Assembly: GCA_035569735.1 (NCBI GenBank)
Contig: DATMMM010000443.1
Coordinates: forward strand, 1 to 36,683
Direction: 5' to 3'
Source: Stellaceae bacterium
GTDB taxonomy: Bacteria > Pseudomonadota > Alphaproteobacteria > ATCC43930 > CGMCC-115725
Length of the DNA stretch: 36,683 nucleotides
Below are positions 2 through 34,701 of the stretch, in pieces (position 1 is the first letter of the stretch; each line of letters starts with the position of its first letter). The position numbers were made by a program, and so were the translations under genes. Below the pieces are notes generated by a model. That model was given only the letters and a program-made list of their open reading frames with translations. It did not search any database and was not told the origin of the DNA.

Positions 2-208
2 TCGGCATTGCGGCGAACCGACATTCTTCTCTGGACGCCGGTTACGGGCTTCGCGCTGAAGCTCGTCCTGAATTACATTCTCATTTCCGTCATGGGCCTG
101 CCCGGCATAGGTTTGTCTACCACTCTCTGTTATGCCGCGACGGCGACGATCGCTCTTATCCTCTGCCGTCGCGCGCTGACAAAGGCCCACGAGCGAGAAA
201 CTCGATAA
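2..208 (+). CDS. C-terminal fragment of a polytopic membrane protein, MOP-flippase-like (Wzx/MurJ-type exporter); 5' end lies outside the window
   Basis: The frame is open to the window edge. Two hydrophobic helices (GFALKLVLNYILISVMGLPGIGL and TTLCYAATATIALILC) are followed by a basic tail and a TAA at 206-208. The family call rests on resemblance only. Confidence 0.4.
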   Translation, partial: SALRRTDILLWTPVTGFALKLVLNYILISVMGLPGIGLSTTLCYAATATIALILCRRALTKAHERETR

Positions 209-871
209 ACGCGATTGGGAGAGCCTGTGGCAGCCGGCAGCGGTGCCGCGCCGAGTCTTTTCCAAGCAGGACACGTTGCGCGATCACTCCTATCACCATA
301 TGCACCGGTATTTCGACGAGATCATACGTCCGGTTGCTGTGCCGGGCGCCCGCCTCATGGCGTTCGGCTGCACTCAATCGAACTGGCTGTCGGGCGATCT
401 ACGAGATTCACGTCGTCATGGACAAGGCTGCGCTCGCTGACGCGCATCGCCGCGCCGGCCTCCATCCCGTCGATGCCAGATACCTGGTGTGCTCGAACTT
501 CGGAGTCGTTGCGATTGACCCGTCCTCGCCTGCGAGAGTGAAGCGCGGGCTTCGTCTGGCGCTGATTGGGGCTCTCGGCATGGCTGTGGTTTATTGATCG
601 TCATATCGCCACTGTTGTCGAGACTCGGACGCTCTCGCCCTATGTGATCTGCACGGCGCGCAATCCGTCCTCATGACCGCGGAACCAGCCGAAAACCGGG
701 ACCCTCTGCCAATCATAGGTGTGCAGCGCGGTTCCCGATCCACCGCCGCGATTTGCCGAGAGACGCGGGCTCTTTTGTTGCCTCCGCCACGCCGAAGGAG
801 GAGGATCGCTTTCCCTCATCGCATCGCGCGGGAGGAGGCGGGCGGGACAAGACCGCATAGGGAGGCGGCCC

Positions 872-1228
872 ATGAGTGGCGTTAAGCTGATCGCTCCGGA
901 ACAGCGCAAGTTCGAGCAGATCGGCGGCGACGCCGGTGACATCCGGATTGGACGCGACGTCGCCGGCGACATCAGCAAGACCTTCGGTGCGGGAATAGCC
1001 GTCTTCGAGAACTGCTCCATGGAGTGGACGGTGCTCTATGACGAATATTTCTATTGCCTCGAAGGCACTCTCACCATCCGGACCAGGGAGGGCACGTTCG
1101 TTATGCGGCCGGGCTACGGACTGTGGCTGCCGAAAGGCACCTGGCTCGTCTATGAGGCCAAGGAGCGCGCCAAGGTCGTCTTCTCCATCTACCCCGTCGA
1201 TTGGCGCGAGCGCCAGTCGCAAACCTGA
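872..1228 (+). CDS. Cupin-domain protein, EutQ/cupin_3-like (no His-rich metal motif)
   Basis: ATG at 872 is preceded by GGGAGG (859-864). Beta-barrel signature WTVLYDEYFYCLEGTLTI...GYGLWLPKGTWLVY. The track ORF starting at 719 is an over-extension into Arg/Gly-rich non-coding-like sequence. Confidence 0.7.
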   Translation: MSGVKLIAPEQRKFEQIGGDAGDIRIGRDVAGDISKTFGAGIAVFENCSMEWTVLYDEYFYCLEGTLTIRTREGTFVMRPGYGLWLPKGTWLVYEAKERAKVVFSIYPVDWRERQSQT

Positions 1229-1239
1229 GAGGTGCTGCC

Positions 1240-2520
1240 GTGAGGAGTTCATCGCGCTCGGATTTGCCGGGCACGGCCGCCAAGGATGTGTCCGCCGTTG
1301 CGCACAAGACCCCGGTCGTCGCCATCACCGACACGGCAGCGACTCTCGATATGGCGCGCTTGCGCGGCTACCGCTTGGCCCGGCTCCGCGAGCAGCTCAA
1401 GAAGCACGATTGTGCGGGGTGCCTGCTGATCGACCCCATCAACATTCGCTATGCCACCGGCAGCCGGAACTACGGCATGTTCCAGTCGCATACGCCCGGC
1501 CGGTACCTTTTCGTGGCGGCGGAAGGACCGGTCGTGCTGTTCGACGCCGTGGCATGCCATGAGGTCGCGCGCGGTCTCGAGACGATCACCGAGCTGCGCC
1601 CGGCCGTCCCCTTCAGCTTTTTCTTCAGCGGGCCGCGGCTGGCCGAGAGCATCGAGGGCTGGGCCGCGGAGCTCGCCTCGCTCTCCCGCGGGTCGGCGGG
1701 GGGCAATAAGCGCCTTGCGGTCGATCGCTGCGATGTGATGTGCGCTTCGGCGCTGACCCGCCACGGACTGGAGCTCGTGGATGCCCAAGGTCCGGTCGAG
1801 CGCGCTCGCTCGATAAAATCCGCCGAAGAGATTCTCTGCATGAATTACTCGCTCGCGGTCGCGGATATCGCGATGGCGCGCATGCGCGAGGCGCTCAAGC
1901 CCGGCCTCACGGAAAACGAGCTCTTTGCGATCCTCTACCACACCAACATCGCGATGGGCGGAGAGTGGATCGACGCGCGCATGCTCACGTCGGGCGATCG
2001 CACGAATCCCTGGCTGCAGGAAAGCAGCGAGCGCCGGATTCGTCCGGGCGAGCTGGTGGCGTTCGACGCCGACATGGTCGGCCCCTTCGGCTATTGCTCG
2101 GACGTCTCGCGCACGTTCTTCTGCGGCCCGGGCCGGCCGTCCGACGCCCAGCGGCACCTCTACAAGCTCGCCTACGAGGAAATCCAGCACAACATGGCGC
2201 TGGTCAAAGCAGGCGTCGGATTCAGGGAGCTCGCCGAGAAGGCTTACCGACAGGCGGACGAATATGTGCCGAACCGCTACATGCTGCTCGCCCACGGCAT
2301 CGGCCTTTGCGACGAATATCCGTCCATCTACTATCGGCAGGATGTCGACAAATACGGCTTCGACGGCGTCCTCGAGGAGAACATGACGATCTGCATCGAA
2401 AGCTACGTCGGCGCGGTGGGCGGCAGGGAAGGAGTCAAGCTCGAGCATCAGGTCCTCGTGACCGCGAAAGGCTGCGAGCTGCTCTCGAAATTTCCATTCG
2501 AGGACGAGCTGCTGCGCTGA
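1240..2520 (+). CDS. M24 (creatinase/prolidase fold) metalloenzyme, DddP-like (DMSP-lyase family) rather than a canonical Xaa-Pro peptidase
   Basis: GTG at 1240 lies 7 nt after GAGAGG and 11 nt after the cupin stop. The pita-bread-fold C-terminal half carries ligand pattern D-x-D-x9-D (codons 2065, 2071, 2101), His +64 (2293), Asp +6 (2311), Glu +29 (2398) and Glu +15 (2443). This spacing matches my recollection of DddP ligands D295/D297/D307/H371/D377/E406/E421. It differs from the canonical M24B D-x10-D spacing. The start could be TTG 1201. Confidence 0.7.
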   Translation: MRSSSRSDLPGTAAKDVSAVAHKTPVVAITDTAATLDMARLRGYRLARLREQLKKHDCAGCLLIDPINIRYATGSRNYGMFQSHTPGRYLFVAAEGPVVLFDAVACHEVARGLETITELRPAVPFSFFFSGPRLAESIEGWAAELASLSRGSAGGNKRLAVDRCDVMCASALTRHGLELVDAQGPVERARSIKSAEEILCMNYSLAVADIAMARMREALKPGLTENELFAILYHTNIAMGGEWIDARMLTSGDRTNPWLQESSERRIRPGELVAFDADMVGPFGYCSDVSRTFFCGPGRPSDAQRHLYKLAYEEIQHNMALVKAGVGFRELAEKAYRQADEYVPNRYMLLAHGIGLCDEYPSIYYRQDVDKYGFDGVLEENMTICIESYVGAVGGREGVKLEHQVLVTAKGCELLSKFPFEDELLR

Positions 2521-2555
2521 TTGTCGCCGGCGAGAGCAACGAGGAGGGACTGGGA

Positions 2556-3686
2556 GTGGCGCGCGAATGTGATTTTCTCATCGTCGGCAGCGGCATAGCG
2601 GGCGCTTCCGCGGCTTATCACTTGGCGGACCGCGGCTCGGTGCTGCTGTTGGAGCGAGAGAGCCAACCCGGATATCATTCGACCGGCCGCTCGGCCGCCG
2701 TCTTCGCCGAGAGCTATGGGCCCCGCCTCATGCGAGCCGTGACGGTCGCGAGCGGTCCGTTCCTGCGCAATCCGCCGGAGGGCTTCTCGGACGTGCCGCT
2801 CATGCACCCCCGCGGCGCCCTCTTCATCGCGCGGCAAGACCAGCGAACGCTCCTCGAGGAGCTCGTCAAGGAGCTCAGCGAGCTTTCGGACGATCTCCAG
2901 CTCATCGGAGCCGAGGAGGCCTTGACGCTTTGCCCCGTGCTAAAGCGCGACTACGTCGCGCTGGCCGCGCGGGATCCGACGGTGATGGATATGGATGTGA
3001 ACGCCATCCATCAAGGCTACCTGCGCGGCGCGCGGAGCAAAGGCGCGGAGGTCGTCACCAACGCCGAAGTGACCGCGCTCGAGCGCCACGGCGGGGTTTG
3101 GCAAAGCAGAACCAAGGCGGGAGATTTCCGGGCGCCCATCGTGATCAACGCCGCCGGCGCCTGGGCGGATGTCGTCGCCGGGCTGGCGGGAGCCCGCAAG
3201 ATCGGGCTGCAGCCGAAGCGCCGAACGGTGATCGTCTTCGATGCGCCTGCCCGAACGGAAATGAGCCGGTTCCCGATCGCGGCCGATTGCAGCGAGCAGT
3301 TCTACTTCAAGCCGGAGTCGGGCCGGGTGCTCGCCTCGCCCGCCGACGAGACGCCGGTCGAGCCGCAGGACGTACAGCCGGAGGAATTGGACGTGGCCCT
3401 GGTCGTGGACCGCGTCGAGCGCGCGTCCACCCTCAAGGTCGAACGGATCTTCCGGCGTTGGGCCGGGCTCAGGAGCTTCGTCGCCGATAAGAATCCGGTG
3501 GTGGGCTTCGCGCCCGACGCCCCGGGTTTCTTCTGGCTCGCCGGACAAGGCGGCTACGGAATTCAAACCTCCTACGCCATGGGTCTGACGGCGGCCTCGC
3601 TCGCGACGGGCAAGGGCCTGCCCGAGTCGGTCAAGAAATTCGGCCTGAGTGAAACCGATCTCGGACCCGCGAGGCTATGGCGCTAG
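2556..3686 (+). CDS. FAD-dependent oxidoreductase, DAO family (sarcosine/glycine/D-amino-acid oxidase-like)
   Basis: GTG at 2556 follows GAGGAGGG (2541-2548). N-terminal dinucleotide fold CDFLIVGSGIAGASAAYHL...LLLERE. C-terminal GQGGYGIQ. The 648-aa track ORF from 1740 is an out-of-frame overlap of the previous gene. Confidence 0.8.
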   Translation: MARECDFLIVGSGIAGASAAYHLADRGSVLLLERESQPGYHSTGRSAAVFAESYGPRLMRAVTVASGPFLRNPPEGFSDVPLMHPRGALFIARQDQRTLLEELVKELSELSDDLQLIGAEEALTLCPVLKRDYVALAARDPTVMDMDVNAIHQGYLRGARSKGAEVVTNAEVTALERHGGVWQSRTKAGDFRAPIVINAAGAWADVVAGLAGARKIGLQPKRRTVIVFDAPARTEMSRFPIAADCSEQFYFKPESGRVLASPADETPVEPQDVQPEELDVALVVDRVERASTLKVERIFRRWAGLRSFVADKNPVVGFAPDAPGFFWLAGQGGYGIQTSYAMGLTAASLATGKGLPESVKKFGLSETDLGPARLWR

Positions 3687-3774
3687 CCCATCGTCCGCGC
3701 TGTCGCGCGATGCGCCCTGTCGAAGTGCGAGTTACATTTCGCACTCACTTCCCCTCCGGTGAAGTGAAAGCGCC

Positions 3775-5493
3775 ATGGCCTATGATTATGTGATTGTCGG
3801 CGGTGGCTCCGCCGGCTGCGTCCTCGCCAATCGCCTATCTGCCGATCCCCGCGCGAGCGTCGTGCTGCTGGAAGCGGGTGTGGACACTCTCCCCGAGCAC
3901 ATCTCGGACGAGATCTACACCTTGCCCTTCTTGCCGCATTATTTCCAGGACGACTACTACTGGACCGACATCCAGGCCTATATGGATCCCATCGGCAACC
4001 GGGCTCCTTCGGAGATTGCAGCGCTCATGCGGCCGCGGCGCTACGAGCAGGCGCGGGTCATGGGCGGCGGCTCCACGGTGAACGGCCAGATCGCGATCCG
4101 GGGCCTGCCATCCGATTACGACGAGTGGGAGGCGCTGGGCGCCACCGGCTGGTCTTTTCGGGATTGCCTGCCTTTTCTGCGCAAGCTCGAGCGCGATCTC
4201 GATTTCGACGGACCCTATCACGGCAAGGACGGGCCGATCCCGATCCATCGCACGTTTCCCGATAATTGGGGCGGACTGTCTCTCGCGTTCCGAAAGACCT
4301 TCGCCAAGAAGGGCATCCCCTATTTCGACGATTGCCATGCCGAGTTCGGCGACGGCTGCTTCCCGTTTCCCAAGAACAACGTCTACGGCCATCGCGTCTC
4401 CGCCGCCTTGGCCTATCTCGATGGCGCGACGCGGCAGCGCAAGAACCTGCGGATCCTGCCGAAGAGCCTGGTCGAGCGCATCGAGTTCGATGGAAAGCGC
4501 GCCGTCGCCGTGCAGGTCTCGCGGGGCGGCAAGCGCGAGCGGATCGAGGGGCGCGAGATCATCGTCTCCAGCGGCGCGCTCCATTCCCCGGCACTCCTCA
4601 TGCGCTCCGGCATTGGTCCGCAGGCGCATCTGCGCGAGCACGGGATCGCCGTAGTCGCGGACCGCCAGGGCGTCGGGTCGAATTTGCAAGAGCATCCCTT
4701 GGTCGGCATCGGTCTCCACATCAAGCCCGAGGGGCGGCTGCCGGCCAGCCTGCGCAACAATTTCCTGCTCTGCATGCGCTTCAGCTCGCATTATCCCGAT
4801 TGCCCGCCACAGGACATGAAGCTCTCTGTCTCGAACCGCTTCGCCTGGACCAAGGTCGGGTTTCAGCTGGGCACCATCCAGTTCGGACCCAACAAGGCCT
4901 TCTCGCGCGGCTTCGTGCGATTGCAAGGCAAGGATCCGCGCCAGGAGCCGCTGATCGCGTTCAACCTGCTGTCGGATCCGCGCGATCTCCAGCGCACCGT
5001 CGATGCGGTGCGCTTCGTCCATGAGGTGCTCAACACCTCGCCCGCCAAAGACATGATCTATTTTGCCTTCCCGGGCATTTACGCGGAGATGCAGCGCAAT
5101 CTGACCACCCAGTCGCGGCGCAACAAACTCCTGAGCGATGCCGCGGCCTGGCTCCTCGACCTCGGCGGTCCCGCGCGCGATTTCGTCATGCGCAACTTCA
5201 TCGTCACGGCGAAACACGGACTGGACGAGGTCGTGCGCGACGAGCGATTGTTGGTGGAATGGATACGCCTCGGCGTGCAAGGCGATTGGCACGCCTGCGG
5301 CACCTGCAAGATGGGCGCGCCCACGGACCCAATGGCGGTGGTCGGGCCCGATGCGCGGGTGGTCGGCGTCGAGAATTTGCGCGTTGCCGACGCCTCGATC
5401 ATGCCGACGGTACCCTGCGCCAATACGAACATCTCCACCATCATGATCGGCGAGAAGGTGGCGGACGCGATCCTGCGCGACCGCCAGGCTTGA
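3775..5493 (+). CDS. GMC-family flavoprotein oxidoreductase (choline/alcohol dehydrogenase-like)
   Basis: N-terminal YDYVIVGGGSAGCVLANRLS...VLLLEAG. GMC signature GGGSTVNG. C-terminal active-site region WHACGTCKMG and ADASIMP. Confidence 0.9.
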   Translation: MAYDYVIVGGGSAGCVLANRLSADPRASVVLLEAGVDTLPEHISDEIYTLPFLPHYFQDDYYWTDIQAYMDPIGNRAPSEIAALMRPRRYEQARVMGGGSTVNGQIAIRGLPSDYDEWEALGATGWSFRDCLPFLRKLERDLDFDGPYHGKDGPIPIHRTFPDNWGGLSLAFRKTFAKKGIPYFDDCHAEFGDGCFPFPKNNVYGHRVSAALAYLDGATRQRKNLRILPKSLVERIEFDGKRAVAVQVSRGGKRERIEGREIIVSSGALHSPALLMRSGIGPQAHLREHGIAVVADRQGVGSNLQEHPLVGIGLHIKPEGRLPASLRNNFLLCMRFSSHYPDCPPQDMKLSVSNRFAWTKVGFQLGTIQFGPNKAFSRGFVRLQGKDPRQEPLIAFNLLSDPRDLQRTVDAVRFVHEVLNTSPAKDMIYFAFPGIYAEMQRNLTTQSRRNKLLSDAAAWLLDLGGPARDFVMRNFIVTAKHGLDEVVRDERLLVEWIRLGVQGDWHACGTCKMGAPTDPMAVVGPDARVVGVENLRVADASIMPTVPCANTNISTIMIGEKVADAILRDRQA

Positions 5494-5503
5494 GGAAATC
5501 CGG

Positions 5504-6763
5504 ATGAATGAGACAAAAAAGCGGGCCGTCACCGTCATCGGTGCCGGCATCGTCGGCACCGTCTGCGCCAACTACCTCCTGCGCGACGGCCATAATGTGA
5601 CCCTGGTCGACCGTCTGGGACCGGGCGAGGCGACGTCGTTCGGCAATACCGGTGGCATCAGCCCGGCCTCGGTGGTCCCGATCGCCTACCCCGGAATGGC
5701 CAGGGACATTCCGAAATGGCTGCTCGATCCCAATGGGCCACTCTATCTCCATTGGTCCTACCTGCCGCAGGTCTTGCCGTGGCTCATCAAGTTCCTGCGC
5801 GCGGGACGGCGCGACCGCGTGGAGCGCATCTCGAAGGCGCTGGCGAGCCTCAACATGCCGACCTTCGAGGCCTATCGCCCGTTGCTCAAGGACGCGGGGC
5901 TAGAGCATCTTTTTCACCAGACCGGGCAGCTCTTCGTCTATCGAAGCAAAGAGGGGCTCGCGCACGATCAGTTCGGCATCGACCTGAAACGCGCGACCGG
6001 ACTGCGCGTCGATATTCTCAATGCCGACGAGATCCGCCAGCTCGAGCCGTCGCTGGCGCCGATCTTCTCCGCGGCTCACTTCATCAGCGATCACGGCCAT
6101 TGCAAGAATCCGTTCGGGTTGGTGCAGGGCCTCGCGGAGAATTTCGTGCGCCGGGGCGGCACTTTGCTGCGCGACGAGGTCCTGGGCTTCGAAATGGGCC
6201 CAGTGGGCCCGAGCGCGATCCTGACCTGCGGCGGCCGGCACGCTCTCGACCTCACCGTGATAGCGGCCGGCGTCTGGTCGAACGCGCTCACGAAACAGCT
6301 CGGCTATGACGTGCCGATCGAGACCCATCGCGGCTACCATGTGACCCTGCCCGATCCCGGCGTGATGCCGCGGATCATGGTCCTGCCGATGGACTACAAG
6401 ATCGCGATCACGCCCATGGAGATGGGGCTCCGATTGGCCGGCACGGTCGAGCTCGCCGCCATCGACGCGCCGCCTAATTACGCGCGCGCTCGAAACCTGC
6501 TGCGCATCGGCCGCGAGATTTTTCCGAGCCTCAATACCGAGGGCTACACCCATTGGATGGGCAACCGCCCGTGTTTCCCGGACAGCCTTCCGGTTCTGGG
6601 CGCGGTGCCGGGCGTGCCCAAGACCTACGTGGCGTTCGGTCACGGTCATCAAGGGCTGCTCGGCGCCTCACAGACCGGCAAGGTCATGGCCGAGCTCATC
6701 GGTGGCCGACCGCTGTCCATGGATTTGACGCCGTTCCGCATCGACCGCTTCTCGCGCGCATAG
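5504..6763 (+). CDS. FAD-dependent oxidoreductase, D-amino-acid dehydrogenase (DadA)-like
   Basis: ATG lies 10 nt after the GMC stop; GAGGA overlaps that stop. VTVIGAGIVGTVCANYLLRDGHNVTLVDR Rossmann motif. 419 aa, DadA-like length and layout (GHGHQG near the C-terminus). Confidence 0.8.
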   Translation: MNETKKRAVTVIGAGIVGTVCANYLLRDGHNVTLVDRLGPGEATSFGNTGGISPASVVPIAYPGMARDIPKWLLDPNGPLYLHWSYLPQVLPWLIKFLRAGRRDRVERISKALASLNMPTFEAYRPLLKDAGLEHLFHQTGQLFVYRSKEGLAHDQFGIDLKRATGLRVDILNADEIRQLEPSLAPIFSAAHFISDHGHCKNPFGLVQGLAENFVRRGGTLLRDEVLGFEMGPVGPSAILTCGGRHALDLTVIAAGVWSNALTKQLGYDVPIETHRGYHVTLPDPGVMPRIMVLPMDYKIAITPMEMGLRLAGTVELAAIDAPPNYARARNLLRIGREIFPSLNTEGYTHWMGNRPCFPDSLPVLGAVPGVPKTYVAFGHGHQGLLGASQTGKVMAELIGGRPLSMDLTPFRIDRFSRA

Positions 6764-6878: not shown

Positions 6879-8924
6879 ATGCGCGACCCGCGCTTCGATA
6901 TTCTGTTCGAGCCCGTTCGGATCGGTCCGGTCGTCGCCAAGAACCGCTTCTACCAGCCGCCACACTGCAACGGCATGGGAAGTTGGCGCCCGCAGGCTCA
7001 CGCGGCCATGCGCGGGGTCAAGGCCGAGGGCGGCTGGGCTGTGGTCAATTCCGAGCATTGCTCGATCCATCCGACCTCGGACGTGGTCCCGGAGGTGCTG
7101 CACGCGCTCTGGGACGACGCGGACATCCCCAATCTCGCGCTCATGTGCGAGGCGGTTCACGCCCATGGCGCGCTCGCCGGGGTCCAGCTCGCCTACGCCG
7201 CCTACTACAACTCGAACCGCTACAGCCGCGAGGTGCCGATGGGGCCGGTGGCGCGGCCGGTCGACAGCTATTACCCCGTCCAGGTGCGCCAGATGGACAA
7301 GGCCGACATCCGCAACCTCAGGCGCTGGTGGGGCGATGCGGCGCGGCGAGCGCGCAAGGCTGGGTTCGACATCGTCAACGTCGATGCGAATTTCTCGACC
7401 GCCGCCTTTCAGTTCCTCTCGCCGCGCAATACGCGGACCGACGAATACGGCGGCTCGCTCGAGAACCGTGTCCGCCTCCTGCGCGAGCTTATCGAGGTGA
7501 CCCAGGAGGCGGTGCAGGGCGCCTGCGCGGTCAGCGTCCGCGTGATCATCGACGAGATGTGCGGCCCGCGCGGGCTCCAGGCGCACCAGGACGGGATCGC
7601 CGCGGTCGCGCTCCTGGGCGACCTGCCGGATCTCTGGGACATCGTGGTCGGCACCTGGGCCGACGATTCTCCGACCTCGCGCTTCGCGCCCGAGAATGCC
7701 CACGAGCCGTTCCTCAAGGGCATCAAGGCCGTGACCAAGCGGCCCGTGGTGGGGGTTGGGCGCTTCACCTCGCCCGACACCATGGCCTCGCTGGTCCGCC
7801 GCGGCATCCTCGACATGATCGGTGCCACCCGACCATCGATCGCCGATCCCTTCCTGCCCAAGAAGATCGAGGAGGGGCGGGAGGACGATATCCGCGAGTG
7901 CATCGGGTGTAACATCTGCGCCTCCAGCCATTTCCAGATGACGAACCTGCGCTGCACCCAGAACCCCACGATGGGCGAGGAATGGCGCAAGGGATGGCAT
8001 CCCGAGCGCGTTCCGCCGAAAGCGTCGGAGGATTCGGTGCTGATCGTGGGCGCGGGACCGGCCGGGCTCGAATGCGCGCGGGCCCTGGGCCAGCGCGGCT
8101 ATCGCGTCACGCTCGCCGAGCGCGGCAAGCAGCTCGGCGGCCGCGTCACCCACGAGGCGGGCCTGCCGGGTCTGCGCGAATGGCTTCGCGTGCGCGACTG
8201 GCGCGTGGGTCAGCTCCGCAAGCTCCTCAATGTCGAAATCTATAGGGAGAGCGATGTCACGCCCGAGACGGTGCTCGAGCTCGGCCCGAGCCACGTCGTG
8301 CTCGCCACCGGCGCTCGCTGGCGCGCCGACGGGGTCGGCCGCGCGACGCACCTGCCGGTGCCGGTCGAGGCGGGCGTGGCCGTCTTCACGCCGGACGATG
8401 TCATGGACGGGCGGACGATTCCCGGGCCGGTCTTGGTGCTCGACGACGATCATTATTATATGGGCAGCCTGGTCGCCGAGACGCTGGCGCGGGCAGGTGC
8501 CGCCGTCACGCTGGTCACCCCTGCGCCCGAAGTCGCCGCCTTCACGGAATCGACGCTCGAGCTTCGCCGCATCGCGCAACGTCTGGACGCGCTCAAGGTG
8601 CGCATGGTCACGCATCATATGCTGGCTCGCGCCGGCGCGGGCGAGGCGCAGCTTCTGCACGTTCACACGAACCGGTCGATGGGCCTTGCGGCCTCCGCGA
8701 TCGTCATGGTAACCGCCCGTTTGCCGGAGGACCGGCTCTATCGCGCGCTGGAGGCGATGCCGGACCGGCTTGCCGATGCCGGCATCAAATCGGTGACGCG
8801 CATCGGCGATTGCTTGGCACCCGGGGCGATCTTTCACGCGGTCTATGCCGGCCATCGCTACGCGCGGGAATTCGATGCGCCGCCGGTTGAGATCGCCTTC
8901 CAGCGCGAGCGGATTGTGCTTTGA
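6879..8924 (+). CDS. Trimethylamine/dimethylamine/histamine dehydrogenase-family iron-sulfur flavoprotein (OYE-like FMN barrel + 4Fe-4S + ADP-binding domains)
   Basis: N-terminus RDPRFDILFEPVRIGPVVAKNRFYQPPHC has Cys at codon 30 (6966-6968), the position of the 6-S-cysteinyl-FMN link in TMADH. RTDEYGGSLENR is present. Cys cluster CIGCNICx11C (7899-7955) is followed by TQNPTMGEEWRKGWHPE, then VLIVGAGPAGLE. 681 aa. Confidence 0.85.
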   Translation: MRDPRFDILFEPVRIGPVVAKNRFYQPPHCNGMGSWRPQAHAAMRGVKAEGGWAVVNSEHCSIHPTSDVVPEVLHALWDDADIPNLALMCEAVHAHGALAGVQLAYAAYYNSNRYSREVPMGPVARPVDSYYPVQVRQMDKADIRNLRRWWGDAARRARKAGFDIVNVDANFSTAAFQFLSPRNTRTDEYGGSLENRVRLLRELIEVTQEAVQGACAVSVRVIIDEMCGPRGLQAHQDGIAAVALLGDLPDLWDIVVGTWADDSPTSRFAPENAHEPFLKGIKAVTKRPVVGVGRFTSPDTMASLVRRGILDMIGATRPSIADPFLPKKIEEGREDDIRECIGCNICASSHFQMTNLRCTQNPTMGEEWRKGWHPERVPPKASEDSVLIVGAGPAGLECARALGQRGYRVTLAERGKQLGGRVTHEAGLPGLREWLRVRDWRVGQLRKLLNVEIYRESDVTPETVLELGPSHVVLATGARWRADGVGRATHLPVPVEAGVAVFTPDDVMDGRTIPGPVLVLDDDHYYMGSLVAETLARAGAAVTLVTPAPEVAAFTESTLELRRIAQRLDALKVRMVTHHMLARAGAGEAQLLHVHTNRSMGLAASAIVMVTARLPEDRLYRALEAMPDRLADAGIKSVTRIGDCLAPGAIFHAVYAGHRYAREFDAPPVEIAFQRERIVL

Positions 8925-8948: not shown

Positions 8949-9725
8949 ATGGACAAATTCATCATTTTCGAGAAGCGGGCTGAGATTGCGGTCATCACGT
9001 TCAATCGCCCATCGATCCTCAATGCTTGGCATACGCCCATGCGCCTCGAGATCACCGAGCGGCTCAAAGAGTGCAACGCCGATCCGGCCGTGCGCGCCGT
9101 CATCATGACCGGCGCGGGCGACCGGGGCTTCTGCGCCGGGCAGGATCTGAACGAGACGAAGCAGCTGCAGGGCGGCGAGGGCGGCGTCGCCTGGGCCGCC
9201 AGCTGGCCGCCGTTCTACGATGCGCTCCGCGGGATGGAAAAGCCGGTGGTCGCCGCGCTGAACGGCGTCGCCGCCGGCTCCGCCTTCCAATGGGCGATGA
9301 TGTGCGACGTTCGCGTCGGCCACAAAGGCGTGACCATGGGACAGCCCGAGATCAACGCCGGGATCGCCTCGACGCTGGGCCCGTGGCTCATGGTCGAGCG
9401 CATCGGCTGGTCGTGGATGGTCGAGCTCACCCTTTCCGGCCGGATGATGGACGCGGCGGAGTGTCACCATATCGGCCTCATCCATTACCTCGTGCCGCAA
9501 AACGAGGTCATGGCGAAATCCATCGAGGTGGCGGCGCACCTGGCCTCCAAGCCGCCGATCGCGATGAAGCTCAACAAACAGCACTTCCGCACGCTCTCCG
9601 AGCCCGCTTATCGGCTCGGTGTCGAGGAGGGTCGGCGCATCCAGCGCGAGGCCTATGCGAGCGGCGAGCCTCAGCTGTGGATGGAGAAGTTCTTCGCGGA
9701 GCGCGAGCGCCGCAAGCGGAAGTGA
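8949..9725 (+). CDS. Enoyl-CoA hydratase/isomerase (crotonase) family protein
   Basis: RBS GAAGGGA. ITFNRP...NAW...VIMTGAGDRGFCAGQDL oxyanion-hole region and KPVVAALNGVAAG. 258 aa. Confidence 0.85.
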   Translation: MDKFIIFEKRAEIAVITFNRPSILNAWHTPMRLEITERLKECNADPAVRAVIMTGAGDRGFCAGQDLNETKQLQGGEGGVAWAASWPPFYDALRGMEKPVVAALNGVAAGSAFQWAMMCDVRVGHKGVTMGQPEINAGIASTLGPWLMVERIGWSWMVELTLSGRMMDAAECHHIGLIHYLVPQNEVMAKSIEVAAHLASKPPIAMKLNKQHFRTLSEPAYRLGVEEGRRIQREAYASGEPQLWMEKFFAERERRKRK

Positions 9726-9771
9726 TCGGGTACATCCTCGGCCACGGCGTGCTATCGGCGGATTTTGCGGA

Positions 9772-11358
9772 ATGAGCCACAGCGAAGCTCCTGCGTTTCC
9801 CTGGGGAGCCGACGACGCGTCCGCGGGGACTTTGCTCACCCGTTTCGCACGGGACCACGGCGACCACGTCTATTGCCGGTTCGGCGCCCACTCTTCTTCC
9901 GTGCGCGAGATCGAGACGGCGGCGAACCGCGTCGCCCACGGGCTCGCGCGCCGCGACATCCTCGCCGGCGACCGGGTCGGCGTGATGCTGGATCACCATC
10001 CGGACCACGTCATCGTCTTCTTCGCGCTCGCCAAGCTCGGCGCCGTGATGGTGCCGCTCAACGTCCATCTGCGCGGCGCGAGCCTCGAGCATTTGCTGCG
10101 CGACGGCGACCTCGCGAGCCTGATCGTCGAAGCACGCTTCGCCGAAACGGTGCAGCCGATATTGCAAACGACGCCGGTCGGACGCGTGATCTGGCGGGAG
10201 AACCCGGCGGGGTCGGAAACTGACGATTTCGCCGCGCTTCTAGCGGATCCGGAGTCGGCGCCGCCCCGTCACGAGGTCGCACCCGACGACATCGCCGTGA
10301 TTCTCTATACGTCGGGCACAACAGGCCTTCCCAAGGGCGTGTTGCTCACCGACCGCATGGTGAGGGTCGCGGCCTGCGCGTCGGGACGCGTCGCGGAGGC
10401 GAGGGACGGCGACGTCTTCCTGATGTGGGAGCCCATCAATCACATCGGCGGCATGGAGGTGCTGGTCTTGGCGGCGCAACGCCGGATCACGCTCGTGATG
10501 GTCGAGCGCTTCAGCGTGTCGCGATTCTGGCCCGAGGTTCGGGAGCATGGCATCACGCACCTGCATTTCCTCGGCGGGGTGCTGGCGCTCCTCCTGAAGG
10601 CCGAGCCGCGGCCCGAGGACCGCGACCACGGGATTCGCGTGGCCTGGGGCGGCGGCTGTCCGCTCTCGATCTGGCGCGCGTTCGAGGAGCGCTTTGGCAT
10701 CCCCATCCGCGAGGGCTATGGCATGACCGAGTGCGCGAGTTTTTCCGCGCAGAACCTTACCGGCAAGCTTGGATCGATTGGCGCCTGTCTTCCCTATCTC
10801 GAAATGCGCGTGGTCGACGAGCGCGGGCAACCGCTGGGGCCCGGCAAACGGGGCGAGATCTGGATTCGCGGAAAGCTGCCAGGCATCATCACGCCCGGTT
10901 ATTGGCGCAATCCGGAGGCGACGGCTGCGCTGTTCGAGGGCGAATGGCTCAGGACCGGCGACATCGGCTGGCATGACGAGGACGGCGACTTCTATTACAG
11001 CGGCCGCAAGAAGGACAGCGTCCGGCGCCGCGGCGAGAATGTCGCGGCCTTCGAGGTGGAGCGCGTGCTGAACGAGCACCCCGCCATCGCGGAAAGCGCC
11101 ATGGTCGGGGTCCCTAACGCCCTTGCCGACGAAGACATCAAGGCGTTCATCCGGCTGAAGCCCGGTGCCACCCTCGACCCGCTCGCGCTCATCCAGTGGT
11201 GCGAAACCCGGATGGCTTATTTCCAGATCCCGCGCTACCTCGCCTTCGTCGACAGCCTTCCCAAGACGCCGAGCGAGCGCATTCGCAAGGACGCGCTGTC
11301 GCGCGGGACCGAGGATAGCTGGGACCTCGAGCGCTCGGGCTACAGTCTCCGGAGATAA
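9772..11358 (+). CDS. AMP-dependent acyl-CoA synthetase/ligase (CaiC/short-chain acyl-CoA ligase-like)
   Basis: ILYTSGTTGLPKGV, GYGMTE, TGDIG and GRKKD adenylate-forming motifs. ATG 9772 was chosen because the upstream part of the track ORF overlaps the crotonase gene out of frame. The RBS is weak, so the start is uncertain. Confidence 0.85.
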   Translation: MSHSEAPAFPWGADDASAGTLLTRFARDHGDHVYCRFGAHSSSVREIETAANRVAHGLARRDILAGDRVGVMLDHHPDHVIVFFALAKLGAVMVPLNVHLRGASLEHLLRDGDLASLIVEARFAETVQPILQTTPVGRVIWRENPAGSETDDFAALLADPESAPPRHEVAPDDIAVILYTSGTTGLPKGVLLTDRMVRVAACASGRVAEARDGDVFLMWEPINHIGGMEVLVLAAQRRITLVMVERFSVSRFWPEVREHGITHLHFLGGVLALLLKAEPRPEDRDHGIRVAWGGGCPLSIWRAFEERFGIPIREGYGMTECASFSAQNLTGKLGSIGACLPYLEMRVVDERGQPLGPGKRGEIWIRGKLPGIITPGYWRNPEATAALFEGEWLRTGDIGWHDEDGDFYYSGRKKDSVRRRGENVAAFEVERVLNEHPAIAESAMVGVPNALADEDIKAFIRLKPGATLDPLALIQWCETRMAYFQIPRYLAFVDSLPKTPSERIRKDALSRGTEDSWDLERSGYSLRR

Positions 11359-11470: not shown

Positions 11471-11977
11471 ATGCGCACGCCCCCATCACGGTTTGCCGGC
11501 GCCGGACTTGCGCTGGCCGTTCTCGGCGGCTGGCTTGCCGGGCCCGCGCGAGGAGAGCTCCTGACGCACCACGATCTCCCCTATGACGTCGCGCTGACCA
11601 TCGCCAAGGGCGCGGTCGAGAGCTGCGCCGCGAAAGGATATCCGGAGTCCGCGGTCGTGGTGGACCGCGACGGCGAGACCATCGTGGCGATCCGCGGCGA
11701 CAACGCCGCGCCTCACACGATGGAAAACGCGCGCCGCAAAGCCTACACGGCGATGAGCTTTCGAACGGCCACGACCGAATACGCCAAGCGCTTCGCCGAC
11801 AACAATCCGGTGGTGCGCCAGCAGGTGACGCTGCCGAACGTCATCGCCATCCCCGGCGGCTTGCCGATCAAGGTCGGCGAAGAGATCGTCGGCGGCGTCG
11901 GCGCATCGGGCTCACCGGGAGTGGACGAGCCCTGCGTCCAAGACGGTCTCGACAAGGTGGCGGACCAGCTCAAGTGA
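11471..11977 (+). CDS. GlcG/HbpS-family (DUF336, heme-binding-like) protein with an N-terminal Sec signal peptide
   Basis: ATG follows GAGGAGG (11458-11464). Signal-like MRTPPSRFAGAGLALAVLGGWLAGPARG. Family core GGLPI...GGVGASG. Confidence 0.7.
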   Translation: MRTPPSRFAGAGLALAVLGGWLAGPARGELLTHHDLPYDVALTIAKGAVESCAAKGYPESAVVVDRDGETIVAIRGDNAAPHTMENARRKAYTAMSFRTATTEYAKRFADNNPVVRQQVTLPNVIAIPGGLPIKVGEEIVGGVGASGSPGVDEPCVQDGLDKVADQLK

Positions 11978-11987
11978 GGCACCGTTC

Positions 11988-12017
11988 TTGCCGACAGGAT
12001 CGGCCACATGGTATTAA
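11988..12017 (+). promoter_or_regulatory. Candidate sigma70-type promoter upstream of the PLP-enzyme/CoA-transferase/LLM sub-cluster
   Basis: TTGCCG (11988-11993), N18, TATTAA (12012-12017), in an unusually AT-rich stretch of the 89-nt spacer. Confidence 0.25.
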
Positions 12018-12066
12018 AATTAGGACGATAAGACGACTGGGCGTGAAGGCGTAGAGCGCGAGCATC

Positions 12067-13569
<1,503 letters not shown>

Positions 13570-15371: not shown

Positions 15372-16325
15372 ATGACCGGATTCTCGAACACCTTCGGCAT
15401 CGCGATGCGGAATTTCACGGCGTTCCCGCAATTGCCGGACGCGCAGGAGCTGGTCGAGTACGGCGTCCGGATGGAGGCGCTGGGCTTCGACTCTCTCTGG
15501 GTGTGGGACCATATCTTGCTGGGTGTTGAGCCGCATTTCCCGATCATCGATTCACTGTCGTTGCTGACCGCGGTGGGCGCGCGCACGAAGCGCATCAAGC
15601 TCGGCACCGGCGTGCTCATTTTGCCGCTCAGGAACCCGCTGTTGCTCGCCAAGCAGCTCTCGTCGATGGACCAGCTCAGCCAGGGCCGCCTTCTGCTCGG
15701 GGTGGCGTCGGGCTGGTACAAGCGCGAGTTCGATTCGGTCGGCGTGCCTTTCGAGAAGCGCGGCAAGATCATGGACGAGAATCTGACCATCATGACGCGG
15801 CTCTGGACCGAGGATGTCGTCGCCGGCGACTACCCGCCCTACCACATGAAAGCCGCGGTGATGTTTCCGAAGCCCTATCAGCGGCCGCGTCCCCCGATCC
15901 TGATCGGCGGCTACGTCGACCGGGTGTTGAAGCGAGCGGGCGTGGCGGGTGACGGGTGGCTCACGTATTTCTATACGCCCCAGAGCTTCACGAAATCCTG
16001 GAAGAAGGTGTGCGACTTCGCAGCCGAGGCGGGCAAGGACCCGGCGCGCCTGCTCAATGCCAATCAGCTGCCGATCATGGTGGGGCAGTCGCGTGCCGCG
16101 GTCGAGGCGCCGATGATGGAATGGCTCTCCAAGGAGTGGGACTATGCGTCCTGGAGCGAGTCCACCAAGGACTCCGCCATCATGGGCACGGTGGACGACT
16201 GCGTGGCGCAGCTCCAGGCGCATCTCGACGCCGGCGTGCAGAAGCTCATCTTCGTGCCCTATCAGTACCGCCCGGATCAGATCGACGTTATCGCCAAGGA
16301 AATCATTCCGCGCCTCAAGCGCTAG
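15372..16325 (+). CDS. Luciferase-like (LLM class) oxidoreductase, F420-dependent subtype likely (Rv2161c-like pattern)
   Basis: RBS AGGAAAAAG. GFDSLWVWDH, LPLRNPLLLAKQLSSMDQLSQGRLLLGVASGWYKREFDSVGVPFEKRGKIMDENL…LW. 317 aa. The F420 (rather than FMN) assignment is inferred from this motif pattern and from abutting the F420 operon. Confidence 0.75.
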   Translation: MTGFSNTFGIAMRNFTAFPQLPDAQELVEYGVRMEALGFDSLWVWDHILLGVEPHFPIIDSLSLLTAVGARTKRIKLGTGVLILPLRNPLLLAKQLSSMDQLSQGRLLLGVASGWYKREFDSVGVPFEKRGKIMDENLTIMTRLWTEDVVAGDYPPYHMKAAVMFPKPYQRPRPPILIGGYVDRVLKRAGVAGDGWLTYFYTPQSFTKSWKKVCDFAAEAGKDPARLLNANQLPIMVGQSRAAVEAPMMEWLSKEWDYASWSESTKDSAIMGTVDDCVAQLQAHLDAGVQKLIFVPYQYRPDQIDVIAKEIIPRLKR

Positions 16326-18766
16326 GCGGTTGCCGCGTCGGCCTCGCGCTGATACCGCCGCGCCGGCGCATTGACGACCTCGGCGAGGGGCGCCGCGGCG
16401 AGCGAGGCGCGCCGCCGCTCCTCGCCTGCGCTCTCATAAAGCGTGGTGCGCTGGATGGGCCGGCGTCCCGCCGCGAGAATGAGCGCCTCCATCCGCTCCG
16501 GCGACATCTCCTGGCCATGCGCGGCGCCGGCGGAGCGCGTGATCGTCTCGTTCATGAGCGTGCCGCCGAGGTCGTTCACCCCTGCCCGGAGACAGGCGGC
16601 AACGCCCTCCGGGCCCAGCTTTACCCAGGACGCCTGGATGCTTGGGATGTGCGGATGGAGAGCCAGGCGCGCCACCGCGTGCATCAGCACGGCCTCGCGG
16701 AACGTGGGTCCGCGGCGCGCGCGTCCTTTGAGATAGATCGGCGCTTCCATGTGGACGAAGGGCAAAGGGATGAACTCGGTGAAGCCGCCCGTGCGGGCCT
16801 GATGGCCGCGCACGCGCAACAGGTGCTTCGCCCAGTGATCGGGCCGGTCGACATGGCCGAACATGATCGTCACCGTGCTCTTGATCCCCATGGCGTGCGC
16901 GGCCTCCATCACCGCGAACCACTGGGCCGTATCGATCTTGTCCGGGCAGATTACGCGGCGGACTTCGTCGTCCAGGATCTCGGCGGCGGTGCCCGGCAGC
17001 GTGCCGAGCCCGGCCTCGCGCAGCCTCGCCAGGAAATCGGGGACGCCGACACCGAGCGTCTCGGCGCCTTGCCAGACCTCGAGCGCGGTGAAGGCGTGGA
17101 CGTGGATTCGCGGTGCCGCCTCTTTCACGGCCCGGCAGATATCGATGTACGTGGCACCGGTATAATCCGGGTGGATGCCCCCTTGCATGCAGACCTCGGT
17201 GGCACCCCGCGCCCAGGCTTCCCGCGTGCGGCGCCGGATCTCGGTGAGATCGAGGTCATAGGGACGCCCGCGCAGGTTCTCGCTCAGCTTGCCCTTGGAG
17301 AAGGCGCAGAACTGGCAGCGGAAATAGCAGACGTTGGTGTAGTTGATGTTCCGGTTGACCACGTAGGTGACGGCGTCGCCGTTGACGGAAGCGCGCAGCT
17401 CGTCCGCGGCCGCTGAGACCGCCGTGAACTCCTGTCCGCGAGCCGCGAACAGCCGCACGATCTCCGCTTCGGTCAGGTCCGCGCCCGCCTGCGCTCGCTC
17501 CAGCACGCGCATGAGCCCCGCGTCGAGATGCGCCGGCCTCGGCGCGCCGATAGAAGCCAACTCGCGCTCGGGTACCGCCGTCGCGACGCCCGGCGACCAC
17601 GTCTCGGCCCGCGCAAACCCCGCCGCATCCGAAAGGTGCAGCACCGCGCTCGAGAGCCGGGCATCGAGCCATCGGTCCGGCCGTTGCGCGTAGGTCGGAT
17701 AAATCGCGAGCCGCTCCACGAGCCCCTTGTCGGCGGCGTTGGTGGCGCGCTCGAGGACATCGAGGTGTGGCCATGGGGCCTCGGGATTGACATGGTCGGG
17801 CGTGACCGGCGAGACGCCGCCCCAATCATTGATGCCCGCGCCGACGAGCTGGCCGAGCGCGCCTGGATTGAGGTTGGGCGGCGACTGGATGTTCATCTCG
17901 GCTCCGAGCACGAGCCGCGCCACGGCGATGGTCCAGAGTTGCTCCTCGAGCGCGGCATCGGGCGCGCTCGCCATGCGCGTCTCGGGCTTGGCGCGGAAAT
18001 TCTGGACGATGACCTCCTGCAGATGGCCATGCCGGTCATGAAGCTCGCGGAGCGCGAGCAACGCCTCGATCCGCTCGCGCCGCGTCTCTCCGATGCCGAT
18101 CAGGATGCCCGAGGTGAGCGGCACCGCCGCCTCTCCGGCGAGGCGGATCGTCTCGAGCCGGAGAGCGGGTATTTTATCCGGAGAGCCGAAATGCGGGCCG
18201 CCTCGCTCGCAGAGCCGCTCGCTGCTGCTCTCGAGCATGAGCCCCTGGGAAACGGATACCGCGCGAAGCGCCGCGATGTCGCCCGCGGAGAGCAGACCGG
18301 GATTGGCGTGCGGCAGCAGCCCGGTCTCCTCGAAGACGAGCCGTGCTGCTTCCGCGAGATAGGCGATGGTCGTGTCGTGGCCGAGCGCTCGCAATTCCTC
18401 TCGCGCCAGGTCGTAGCGCAGCTCCGGCTTGTCGCCGAGCGTGAACAGCGCCTCCTTGCACCCGGCCGCCGCGCCCGCGCGCGCGATCGCCAAAACCTCC
18501 TCGCGCGAGAGATAGGCGCGCTCGCCCCGTCGCGGAGCGTGAGCGAAGGTACAGTAGTGGCAGACGTCGCGGCAGAGCTGCGTGAGCGGGATGAACACCT
18601 TTCGCGAGTAGGACACGATCGCGCCGTGGCCGGCGTCTCGCAAATCAGCCGCCGCCTCCATAAGGAGCGCGAGATCGGGGCACTCGCAGAGAGCGAGCGC
18701 CTCCGCCTCCGTCAGTCGCCGGCCCGCTCCCGCATCCTGCACCAAGGCATGCATAGGCTGTGGCAT
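16322..18766 (-). CDS. fbiC: FO synthase (7,8-didemethyl-8-hydroxy-5-deazariboflavin synthase), fused CofG+CofH
   Basis: Two radical-SAM CxxxCxxC motifs: CRDVCHYC (18551-18574) and CYFRCQFC (17306-17329). 814 aa. ATG 18766 is preceded by AGGAAA. The 1047-aa track ORF is an over-extension across cofC. Confidence 0.9.
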   Translation of the reverse strand: MPQPMHALVQDAGAGRRLTEAEALALCECPDLALLMEAAADLRDAGHGAIVSYSRKVFIPLTQLCRDVCHYCTFAHAPRRGERAYLSREEVLAIARAGAAAGCKEALFTLGDKPELRYDLAREELRALGHDTTIAYLAEAARLVFEETGLLPHANPGLLSAGDIAALRAVSVSQGLMLESSSERLCERGGPHFGSPDKIPALRLETIRLAGEAAVPLTSGILIGIGETRRERIEALLALRELHDRHGHLQEVIVQNFRAKPETRMASAPDAALEEQLWTIAVARLVLGAEMNIQSPPNLNPGALGQLVGAGINDWGGVSPVTPDHVNPEAPWPHLDVLERATNAADKGLVERLAIYPTYAQRPDRWLDARLSSAVLHLSDAAGFARAETWSPGVATAVPERELASIGAPRPAHLDAGLMRVLERAQAGADLTEAEIVRLFAARGQEFTAVSAAADELRASVNGDAVTYVVNRNINYTNVCYFRCQFCAFSKGKLSENLRGRPYDLDLTEIRRRTREAWARGATEVCMQGGIHPDYTGATYIDICRAVKEAAPRIHVHAFTALEVWQGAETLGVGVPDFLARLREAGLGTLPGTAAEILDDEVRRVICPDKIDTAQWFAVMEAAHAMGIKSTVTIMFGHVDRPDHWAKHLLRVRGHQARTGGFTEFIPLPFVHMEAPIYLKGRARRGPTFREAVLMHAVARLALHPHIPSIQASWVKLGPEGVAACLRAGVNDLGGTLMNETITRSAGAAHGQEMSPERMEALILAAGRRPIQRTTLYESAGEERRRASLAAAPLAEVVNAPARRYQREADAATA

Positions 18767-18777
18767 TCGAGGTTTTC

Positions 18778-34684: not shown

Positions 34685-34701
34685 TGCGGCGTCTGCTCTC
34701 G

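Follow-up and report, generated by a model that had tools for sequence, protein, structure and literature searches.

A predicted DddP-type active site outside the ratified DddP lineage in an M24-fold protein of a Stellaceae bacterium

What is the function of an M24-fold protein whose metal ligands are spaced as in the dimethylsulfoniopropionate (DMSP) lyase DddP, when its gene stands in a cluster of amine-dehydrogenase-type genes? The question is raised by a gene at positions 1240-2520 of contig DATMMM010000443.1 (Stellaceae bacterium, assembly GCA_035569735.1); the whole stretch analysed, 36,683 nucleotides (nt), is called the window below, and the gene product the query. The original prediction, made from the letters alone, described the site as DddP-type rather than peptidase-type, paired the gene with an upstream cupin, and implied a DMSP lyase. 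We aimed to decide whether the query is a peptidase, a DMSP lyase, another catabolic enzyme of the same fold, or a relative of DddP with a substrate of its own. The reading we prefer, whose chances as a whole we put just short of even, is a DddP-mechanism di-metal enzyme from a distinct, mainly soil and rhizosphere clade that acts on a nitrogenous zwitterion other than DMSP.

1240..2520, plus strand: M24-fold gene of the DddP superfamily, 426 amino acids (aa); creatinase-type N-domain and pita-bread C-domain.

The gene starts with a GTG at 1240, which direct reading places 11 nt 3' of the TGA of the cupin gene (1226-1228), as had been claimed; a GAGG stands at 1229-1232, and the stop codon occupies 2518-2520. 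The same 426-aa frame and start, together with the 118-aa cupin, were called independently on a public contig of 99% identity.

According to Hehemann et al. 2014 (PMC4108388), the metals of DddP are bound by Asp295, Asp297, Asp307, His371, Glu406 and Glu421, with Tyr366 and Asp377 as the candidate bases, and methionine aminopeptidase has no residue equivalent to Asp297; the ligand list and Asp377 had been given correctly in the original prediction. The query residues D276, D278, D288, H352, D358, E387 and E402 align to DddP D295, D297, D307, H371, D377, E406 and E421, and Y347 to Y366. The corresponding codons are GAC 2065 (D276), GAC 2071 (D278), GAC 2101 (D288), CAC 2293 (H352), GAC 2311 (D358), GAA 2398 (E387) and GAG 2443 (E402), with GCC 2068 (A277) between the first two aspartates and Y347 at 2278. 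All the metal-ligand codon positions given earlier proved exact, as did the spacing counted from D288 (-12, -10, +64, +70, +99 and +114) and the distance of E402 from the C-terminus, 24 residues. Over DddP residues 289-443 the query aligns with RlDddP and RdDddP without any gap, and the ligand columns coincide with those of DddP.

Canonical M24B enzymes have two Asp ligands 11 residues apart (E. coli PepP D260/D271; methionine aminopeptidase D97/D108). The five-ligand site of the M24B peptidases is not matched by the query, which has a 12-residue spacing, an extra Asp ligand, and D358 in place of a His. In the Bacillus anthracis prolidase 3q6d it is the His of 'HGIGLEIHE' that aligns to D358, in agreement with the published replacement of the peptidase His by Asp in DddP (PMC5395565). 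The same work reports that the second substrate-binding His of the M24 enzymes is replaced by Phe and that RlDddP is inactive on Val-Pro (PMC5395565). The outgroup M24 genes in the loci collected here are metal-less and creatinase-like, and were unusable as a gauge of the 11-residue Asp spacing.

Similarity at the level of the whole protein points the same way. The product matches Pfam Creatinase_N and Peptidase_M24; in a phmmer search against the PDB, the best hits are RlDddP 4rzy (1.8e-77) and RdDddP 4b28 (1.4e-75), as compared to 1.8e-17 for the best peptidase, 6.9e-9 for creatinase 1chm and 6e-6 for ectoine hydrolase 6twk. The identity to DddP is 33-35%, versus 19-24% to Xaa-Pro peptidases and creatinase. 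With the NCBIfam models of creatinase and DoeA (TIGR02993, NF038259) the query reaches 35-48 bits, far from the cutoffs of 575-613. AlphaFold2, run on an alignment of 47 sequences, gave a model with a mean predicted local distance difference test score of 90.6; superposed by Foldseek, it places four DddP structures on top (TM-score 0.89; root-mean-square deviation 1.6 A to 4b28; 33-34% identity), followed by a tier of prolidases (about 0.70), creatinase and DoeA, with TM-scores of 0.65-0.74 and 18-24% identity. The query is thus almost certainly a non-peptidase enzyme of the DddP superfamily.

Membership in the superfamily does not make the query a DddP in the strict sense. Against the NCBIfam equivalog model NF043017 it scores 341.9 bits versus the cutoff of 600 (351 bits for its orthologue in locus L098; the loci collected around homologues are cited by such numbers below), and it is 35% identical to RlDddP. 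A search with RlDddP returns a tight group of proteins of 446-447 aa that are 84-92% identical, many of them named DddP by NCBI. The relatives of the query are 415-aa proteins named 'Xaa-Pro peptidase family protein' or 'M24 family metallopeptidase'; they occur in Stellaceae soil metagenome-assembled genomes (MAGs; 83-89% identity), Bradyrhizobium (75%) and Pseudomonas zhanjiangensis (60%), with several hundred more at 46-60% in Alphaproteobacteria, including marine ones. The soil MAGs and Bradyrhizobium being the nearest relatives, the earlier remark on non-marine surroundings is borne out. When 1.84 billion cluster representatives were scanned in full by HMMER, R. pomeroyi DddP being the query sequence, only 264 clusters reached an E-value of 1e-30 or better, hence the superfamily is modest in size.

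A bootstrapped neighbour-joining (NJ) tree of 66 sequences, including representatives of 50% clusters and leaving out DddP1, DddP2, HWgs001 and the fungal (Aspergillus and Fusarium) DddPs, unites the Roseobacter DddPs (R. pomeroyi, RlDddP and others) and the intermediate representatives P0242 and P0244 in a clade with 98% support that excludes the query. The query falls into a separate clade (95%) with the soil-MAG, Bradyrhizobium and Pseudomonas proteins. In a first NJ tree true DddP appeared as a sister to the whole short DddP-like radiation; this placement was dropped, as the deep branches collapse when cluster representatives are added. Ruegeria lacuscaerulensis, the source of RlDddP, also encodes a member of the radiation, which shares 55% identity with the query and 36% with RlDddP; thus, the two lineages behave as paralogues. 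Judged by these comparisons, the query and the ratified DddP of the Roseobacter type are not orthologues. None of the collected sequences matched the peptides that the HWgs001 primers would encode. Members of the radiation are found in rhizobia, Bradyrhizobium, Paraburkholderia, Pseudomonas and many marine Alphaproteobacteria.

The catalytic signature itself is shared widely. Among the 211 members of the radiation, each of the six ligands, as well as Y366 and D377, is conserved in 97-100%, and about 97% share the whole site; hence, the 'DddP signature' marks the superfamily and not the DMSP lyase alone. Some of the more distant cluster representatives are without D377 or D297, and the query keeps all these residues.

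What differs is the presumed pocket. Of the columns that are invariant in true DddP, six differ in the query: W95 (F81), F101 (Gly), Y117 (Ala), F278 (Leu), W379 (Tyr) and A/C408 (Tyr). The resulting pattern (F; small; small; F or L; Y; Y) holds throughout the 95% clade of the query. In DddP the sulfonium of DMSP is gripped by a Trp together with a Tyr (PMC5395565). The W95 column is Trp in all 21 true DddPs sampled and is split in the radiation between Trp (99) and Phe (96), with Phe81, a conservative replacement, in the query. We take the sulfonium-holding Trp to be Trp95, the residue reportedly named by Wang et al. 2015 in their work on the RlDddP mechanism. The F278 column, 17 residues before D295 and Leu in the query, is taken, by spacing, as the Phe that replaces the second His (the His243-equivalent position). 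With Trp95 assigned provisionally and F278 by spacing, we regard the changed columns as probably lining the substrate pocket. If so, the chemistry at the metal-bound carboxylate would be kept and the cavity around the leaving group reshaped.

The genes around the query provide another line of evidence. It belongs to a co-directional cluster, with short gaps between the downstream genes, whose other members are as follows.

872..1228, plus strand: EutQ-like cupin, 118 aa, no His; Pfam EutQ 1.3e-14, Cupin_3 1.6e-5; first gene of the cluster.

2556..3686, plus strand: DauA-type D-amino-acid dehydrogenase dependent on flavin adenine dinucleotide (FAD), 376 aa; PDB 3nyc 4.4e-110.

3775..5493, plus strand: GMC-family flavin oxidoreductase (choline-dehydrogenase/HMF-oxidase-like); Pfam GMC_oxred_N/C; PDB 6f97 9.5e-112.

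5504..6763, plus strand: DadA-like protein of the FAD-dependent D-amino-acid dehydrogenase family; Pfam DAO 1.4e-60; PRK00711 213 bits vs the cutoff of 383.

6879..8924, plus strand: amine dehydrogenase of the histamine-dehydrogenase/TMADH family (flavin mononucleotide (FMN), Fe-S and ADP-binding); 6de6 1.1e-219; TMADH 1djn 4.6e-168.

8949..9725, plus strand: enoyl-coenzyme A (CoA) hydratase (crotonase) family; Pfam ECH_1 2.4e-44.

9790..11358, plus strand: AMP-forming acyl-CoA ligase; Pfam AMP-binding 7.3e-73; start uncertain (9619-9790).

A scan of 150-3900 for promoters and terminators gave nothing beyond the shuffled expectation.

The partner kept most widely with the M24 gene is the DauA-like gene. 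It follows the M24 gene in L002, L082/83, L084, L086, L088 and L098, and the identities of the two products to their homologues fall together (83/83, 72/70 and 70/68% for the M24 and DauA-like proteins, over L002, L082/83, L088 and L084); the association persists to approximately 70% identity. The DauA-like protein is 48% identical to Pseudomonas aeruginosa D-arginine dehydrogenase (3nyc), gapless over 371 aa. It keeps R222, R305, Y53, Y249 and E246, presumably the binders of the substrate carboxylate and amino groups, and has Ala for E87 and Val for H48. Glu87 of DauA is, we assume, the residue that binds the guanidinium of D-arginine. With E87 and H48 both replaced, D-arginine is probably not the preferred substrate, and a different side-chain specificity may be expected. 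Unlike the P. aeruginosa DauA locus, the window gene has no dauB or dauR nearby.

The cupin, on the other hand, travels with the M24 gene only over a short distance. Its assignment as EutQ-like and devoid of a metal motif, made earlier, is upheld by Pfam PF06249 (54.7 bits vs the gathering cutoff of 21), by the PDB EutQ structures 4axo (2.3e-9) and 2pyt (1.7e-8), and by the count of zero His residues. A cupin metal lyase of the DddL/Q/W/K type was considered and ruled out, as the protein has no His at all. Its recognisable family is limited to 28 clusters, none of them below 52% identity, and its gene immediately precedes the M24 gene only in the window, L002, L082/83, L086 and L098; in three of the cupin-bearing loci the M24 protein is at least 83% identical to the query, L098 being additional. 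No cupin is found beside the M24 homologues at 84% (L001), 75% (L081), 72% (L088) and 70% (L084) identity, nor in the 78 more distant loci. One cupin homologue at 53% identity is free-standing beside an ABC transporter. The best reading is that of a lineage-specific accessory, neither a second lyase nor an obligate subunit. The cupin resembles EutQ (2pyt/4axo) in its subfamily (Pfam EutQ, Cupin_3), small size and absence of a metal-binding His motif; unlike EutQ, it equals only the C-terminal cupin domain, its partners are the M24 protein and a flavoenzyme, and there are no eut operon or microcompartment genes. EutQ has acetate kinase activity.

The pairing of the M24 gene with the cupin is therefore real, as stated in the original prediction, but is confined to close relatives and L098, and the DauA-like gene is the wider-kept partner. 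The DddP-type assignment stood: of the two outcomes named beforehand as refuting it, ligand columns out of register with DddP and an identity to DddP no higher than to generic Xaa-Pro peptidases, neither was observed. The implied DMSP lyase working with the cupin is weakened by the widely shared signature, the separate clade and the score below the equivalog cutoff, by the narrow cupin pairing, and by the wider-kept DauA-like gene, to which the original prediction did not refer.

The genes further downstream are tied to the M24 gene less closely, as the order cupin, M24, DauA-like, GMC (and DadA-like) recurs only in the near-identical contig L086; hence, we infer rather than observe that the later genes belong to one operon or pathway with it. 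In L051 and L053 the gene immediately after the M24 gene is a DadA-like homologue (38-43% identity). The GMC gene scores 366 bits against the choline dehydrogenase subfamily of NCBIfam, under the cutoff of 605. The amine dehydrogenase keeps the FMN-linking Cys30 and has His both at the position of TMADH Y60 and at that of W355 (D358 in histamine dehydrogenase). Because both substrate-defining positions are His, the predicted site is neither of the trimethylamine type nor of the histamine type. The acyl-CoA ligase reaches 445 bits with NCBIfam PRK06155 and 289 bits, below the cutoff, with the CaiC-type model. Further co-directional genes encode a GlcG-like protein, a 500-aa pyridoxal 5'-phosphate (PLP) enzyme, CoA-transferase subunits, and an F420-type luciferase-like oxidoreductase.

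In the context set of 78 loci from species-representative genomes, 34 loci have, no more than 10 kb from the M24 gene, at least one gene for an MttB-family methyltransferase (13), a DMGDH-like flavoenzyme (12), a TMADH-family dehydrogenase (9), a GbcA-like Rieske oxygenase (5) or another DAO-family protein. Tandem M24 pairs are present in 14 loci, and in 11 of these, within L067-L080, an MttB-like gene lies divergently upstream. The tandem DddP-like genes may encode a hetero-dimeric enzyme. Tandem pairs such as those in L069, L070, L072, L075 and L079 come from marine alphaproteobacterial MAGs, are 46-49% identical to the query, and have an EamA transporter and an IlvD/Edd-type dehydratase downstream. 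A tblastn search located homologues on 184 plasmids, mostly from Rhizobium (86) and Sinorhizobium (67), the others including Paraburkholderia, Caballeronia, Burkholderia, Paracoccus and Pseudomonas plasmids.

Transport genes are seen near the closer homologues. In L002, L082/83 and L098 the cupin, M24 and DauA-like trio has genes for a LivK-type binding protein or a complete ABC transporter beside it, and in L084 the M24 and DauA-like genes are adjoined by an SBP_bac_1-type transporter, a TauD-like dioxygenase, a Rieske protein and an IclR regulator. In L098 (56-8918) the unit formed by the substrate-binding protein, cupin, M24 and DauA-like genes is preceded by DoeA-like (520 bits vs 613) and DoeB-like (387 vs 403) genes and by one for a KstD-like FAD dehydrogenase, an arrangement suggesting that this alphaproteobacterial MAG may break down a solute similar to ectoine. 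The Caballeronia homologue follows a GbcAB-like pair of Rieske oxygenase and reductase. A member of the query clade, 59% identical (WP_138963132.1), is found on plasmid pMPC6-328K of the cultured strain Pseudomonas sp. MPC6 (L092, 8017-11559), flanked by a HalD-like member of the Fe/2-oxoglutarate amino-acid halogenase/hydroxylase family and an FrhB/FdhB-like (F420-related) gene, with a proline/glycine-betaine ABC transporter approximately 6-9 kb downstream. Other cultured carriers in the 95% clade are Pseudomonas zhanjiangensis 25A3E and a Bradyrhizobium (CP064695.1, 6.67-6.70 Mb).

On Sinorhizobium meliloti pSymA (L091, CP140933.1 775480-800571) the M24 gene (11803-13107) overlaps an isochorismatase-family gene. 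The island has a GlxA-type regulator with MttB-family and DMGDH-like genes on one side, and the isochorismatase, a glycine-betaine-type ABC transporter, an enolase-superfamily (MR/MLE) gene and an Ldh-family reductase on the other. Its M24 protein was considered as a proxy for the query and rejected, having Gly at the D377 position and being only 45% identical. The true dddP gene, as seen in R. pomeroyi and in Lentibacter-type contigs, stands alone next to glnB-glnA and has no amine or betaine neighbours.

Because the query sits on a separate branch and in an amine or amino-acid breakdown operon of a soil-type bacterium, we favour a different small zwitterionic acid as the substrate. The carboxylate of this acid would bind the di-metal centre, as in DddP, the metal pair probably being di-iron; Asp358 would take the alpha-proton, and the cationic group on the neighbouring carbon would be expelled by beta-elimination. 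The substrate would be an amino-acid-like or betaine-like nitrogen compound, imported in the relatives by the LivK-type or betaine-type ABC transporter, and one of the products would be oxidised by the DauA-type dehydrogenase and the other amine dehydrogenases of the operon. By analogy with DddP, alpha-deprotonation chemistry of this type is fairly probable, and a physiological substrate other than DMSP is quite likely; some measurable cleavage of DMSP in vitro is conceivable, although we would not expect it. A more specific version, in which the query clade, and perhaps much of the short DddP-like radiation, consists of di-metal lyases cutting a C-N or other non-DMSP bond in a betaine-like or amino-acid-like osmolyte, is speculative and rather doubtful. 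An example would be the beta-elimination of an amine from a compound of the 3-ammonio-propionate type, the amine passing to DauA-, DMGDH-, TMADH- or MttB-type enzymes. A literature search found no characterised member of the query clade.

Among the alternatives, a genuine physiological lyase of DMSP or dimethylsulfoxonium propionate (DMSOP) in a soil bacterium, releasing dimethyl sulfide (DMS) and acrylate, with the CoA ligase, crotonase and GMC protein disposing of acrylate or 3-hydroxypropionate, is the one suggested by the presence of all the catalytic residues of DddP. Activity has been found in DddPs of 32-55% identity and in those of non-Roseobacter hosts, and every DMSP lyase tested also cleaves DMSOP (PMC10686828). 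Still, the query scores below the equivalog cutoff and lies outside the 98% DddP clade, and a paralogue from the radiation exists alongside true DddP in R. lacuscaerulensis. Its best-kept neighbour encodes a D-amino-acid dehydrogenase, an enzyme that the cleavage of DMSP does not call for; the acrylate-type downstream genes are not kept with the M24 gene in L002, L082 and L098; the window contains no DddC-type aldehyde dehydrogenase, AcuI, dmd genes or DMSP-type transporter; and the host lineage is from soil. We consider a physiological DMSP lyase decidedly unlikely. A C-N hydrolase similar to creatinase or DoeA, or an unusual dipeptidase, would free a D- or N-substituted amino acid for the DauA-like enzyme, and would suit the amino-acid dehydrogenase partner, the fold and two-domain architecture common to creatinase and DoeA, the isochorismatase-family amidase, hydantoinase or M19 dipeptidase genes near some homologues, and the DoeA-like/DoeB-like pair just upstream of the L098 trio. 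It is nonetheless unlikely, given the far weaker similarity to creatinase (7e-9) and DoeA (6e-6) than to DddP (1e-77), the replacement by Asp of the His that supports hydrolysis in M24B enzymes, and the failure of RlDddP to act on Val-Pro (PMC5395565). The query keeps the six ligands of DddP. Creatinase, in contrast, has lost its metal ligands.

The tight coupling to a D-amino-acid dehydrogenase could also be explained by a metal-dependent racemase or epimerase, in which Asp358 and Tyr347 would serve as two bases converting an L-derivative to the D-form for the DauA-like enzyme. Epimerase and D-amino-acid dehydrogenase in sequence are an established logic in hydroxyproline and proline-betaine catabolism, and enolase-superfamily racemase genes occur near some homologues. 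The DddP metal site does have two candidate bases above it (PMC4108388). This explanation is purely inferential, however, the separate MR/MLE genes nearby would already fill the role, and we regard it as very unlikely. We know of no racemase with the M24 fold. Finally, an ordinary Xaa-Pro peptidase is what the public names ('Xaa-Pro peptidase family protein', 'M24 family metallopeptidase') and the Pfam Peptidase_M24 match would suggest, but peptidase scores are about 60 orders of magnitude worse than those of DddP, the extra Asp ligand, the 12-residue spacing and the His-to-Asp358 change all depart from the peptidase site, and there is a Leu at the His243-equivalent position (as mapped by spacing). 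This explanation is barely credible.

Several observations weigh against the preferred reading, that of a separate lineage with a nitrogenous substrate other than DMSP. The replacements W95F and W379Y leave aromatic residues in place, so that cation-pi binding of a sulfonium would still be possible. The deep branches of the NJ tree have bootstrap values below 30. The neighbourhood is not fixed even in close relatives: L001, whose M24 protein is 84% identical, has a luciferase-like monooxygenase upstream and no DauA-like gene, and the count of 34 out of 78 loci has no genome-wide background. The GMC, crotonase and CoA ligase genes would suit the metabolism of acrylate or 3-hydroxypropionate, DddA being a choline-dehydrogenase-like GMC protein (PMC7940609). 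An active Fusarium DddP is only 32% identical to RdDddP (PMC4108388), and the divergent lyases DddP1 (WP_094198963.1) and DddP2 (AEQ39103/G5CZE7) of O. doudoroffii and the short-type DddP of HWgs001 are active as well (PMC10989825); a lyase of the DddP2 type could lie close to the query clade.

The query shares with DddP (4rzy/4s00/4s01; 4b28; NF043017) the two-domain M24 fold, the six ligands with their 12/10 spacing, the Tyr and Asp over the metal site, and the loss of the peptidase His; unlike DddP, it is 35% identical to the reference, approximately 30 residues shorter at the N-terminus, a member of its own clade and changed in the presumed pocket, and it stands in a catabolic operon with amine dehydrogenases in a soil host, whereas true dddP is a lone gene beside glnBA in marine bacteria. 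The DddP2 of O. doudoroffii and the DddP of the scallop symbiont HWgs001, compared here by description only, are reported as distinct from Roseobacter DddP yet active, and their hosts are marine. The HWgs001 ligands D263/D265/D275/H339 imply a protein of about 413 aa, short like the 415-aa members of the query radiation, and a Paraburkholderia homologue is aligned with the divergent lyases in the HWgs001 paper (PMC10989825). Creatinase and DoeA (EutD) have the same creatinase-type N-domain and pita-bread domain and serve, as is proposed for the query, the catabolism of small nitrogenous zwitterions, in the creatinase pathway followed by a flavin amine oxidase (sarcosine oxidase), but the similarity is at E-values of 1e-6 to 1e-9, the active site is different, and they hydrolyse where DddP eliminates. 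As far as sequence can tell, the query combines the fold and catalytic apparatus of DddP with another lineage, another pocket and another genomic role.

In counts from ocean metagenomes dddP outnumbers the other DMSP-lyase genes, and such surveys hinge on where the family boundary is drawn. The full DddP signature is present in a large set of proteins labelled 'Xaa-Pro peptidase', including those of soil bacteria and of Rhizobium, Sinorhizobium, Paraburkholderia and Pseudomonas plasmids. If the proteins of the radiation cleave DMSP, the terrestrial potential for DMS is under-counted. If they do not, as the neighbourhoods suggest, the active-site motif alone over-calls DMSP lyases, and there would be a second substrate class tied to amine and betaine catabolism. 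Should cleavage of a C-N or other non-DMSP bond prove true, it would constitute a new reaction class for the fold and a missing step in the cycling of methylated amines in soil and sea.

The rest of the window contains several further gene sets. The 500-aa PLP protein (12067-13569), PALP-fold and cysteine-synthase-like, has its catalytic domain beginning near residue 93 and lies upstream of the two CoA-transferase subunit genes. At the end of the catabolic cluster, the F420-class luciferase-like oxidoreductase gene (15372-16325) adjoins an F420 biosynthesis set, the two together spanning 15372-21231; the set lies on the minus strand and has bifunctional cofGH/fbiC at 16322-18781, cofC at 18778-19512, cofD at 19472-20461 and cofE at 20458-21231. 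A complete F420 set is notable for an Allostellaceae-like alphaproteobacterium. It is followed by a 5-oxoprolinase set of the PxpABC type, with LamB/YcsF at 21278-22054 on the minus strand, CT_C_D and CT_A_B at 22211-23964 on the plus strand, and a GntR/UTRA regulator at 23989-24753. A molybdenum hydroxylase is represented by a large subunit similar to XDH and CO dehydrogenase (27154-29430) and by an FAD subunit (29911-30771). The Lon protease (32255-35077, 940 aa) has its substrate-binding domain starting from residue 171, that is, an unusual N-terminal extension.

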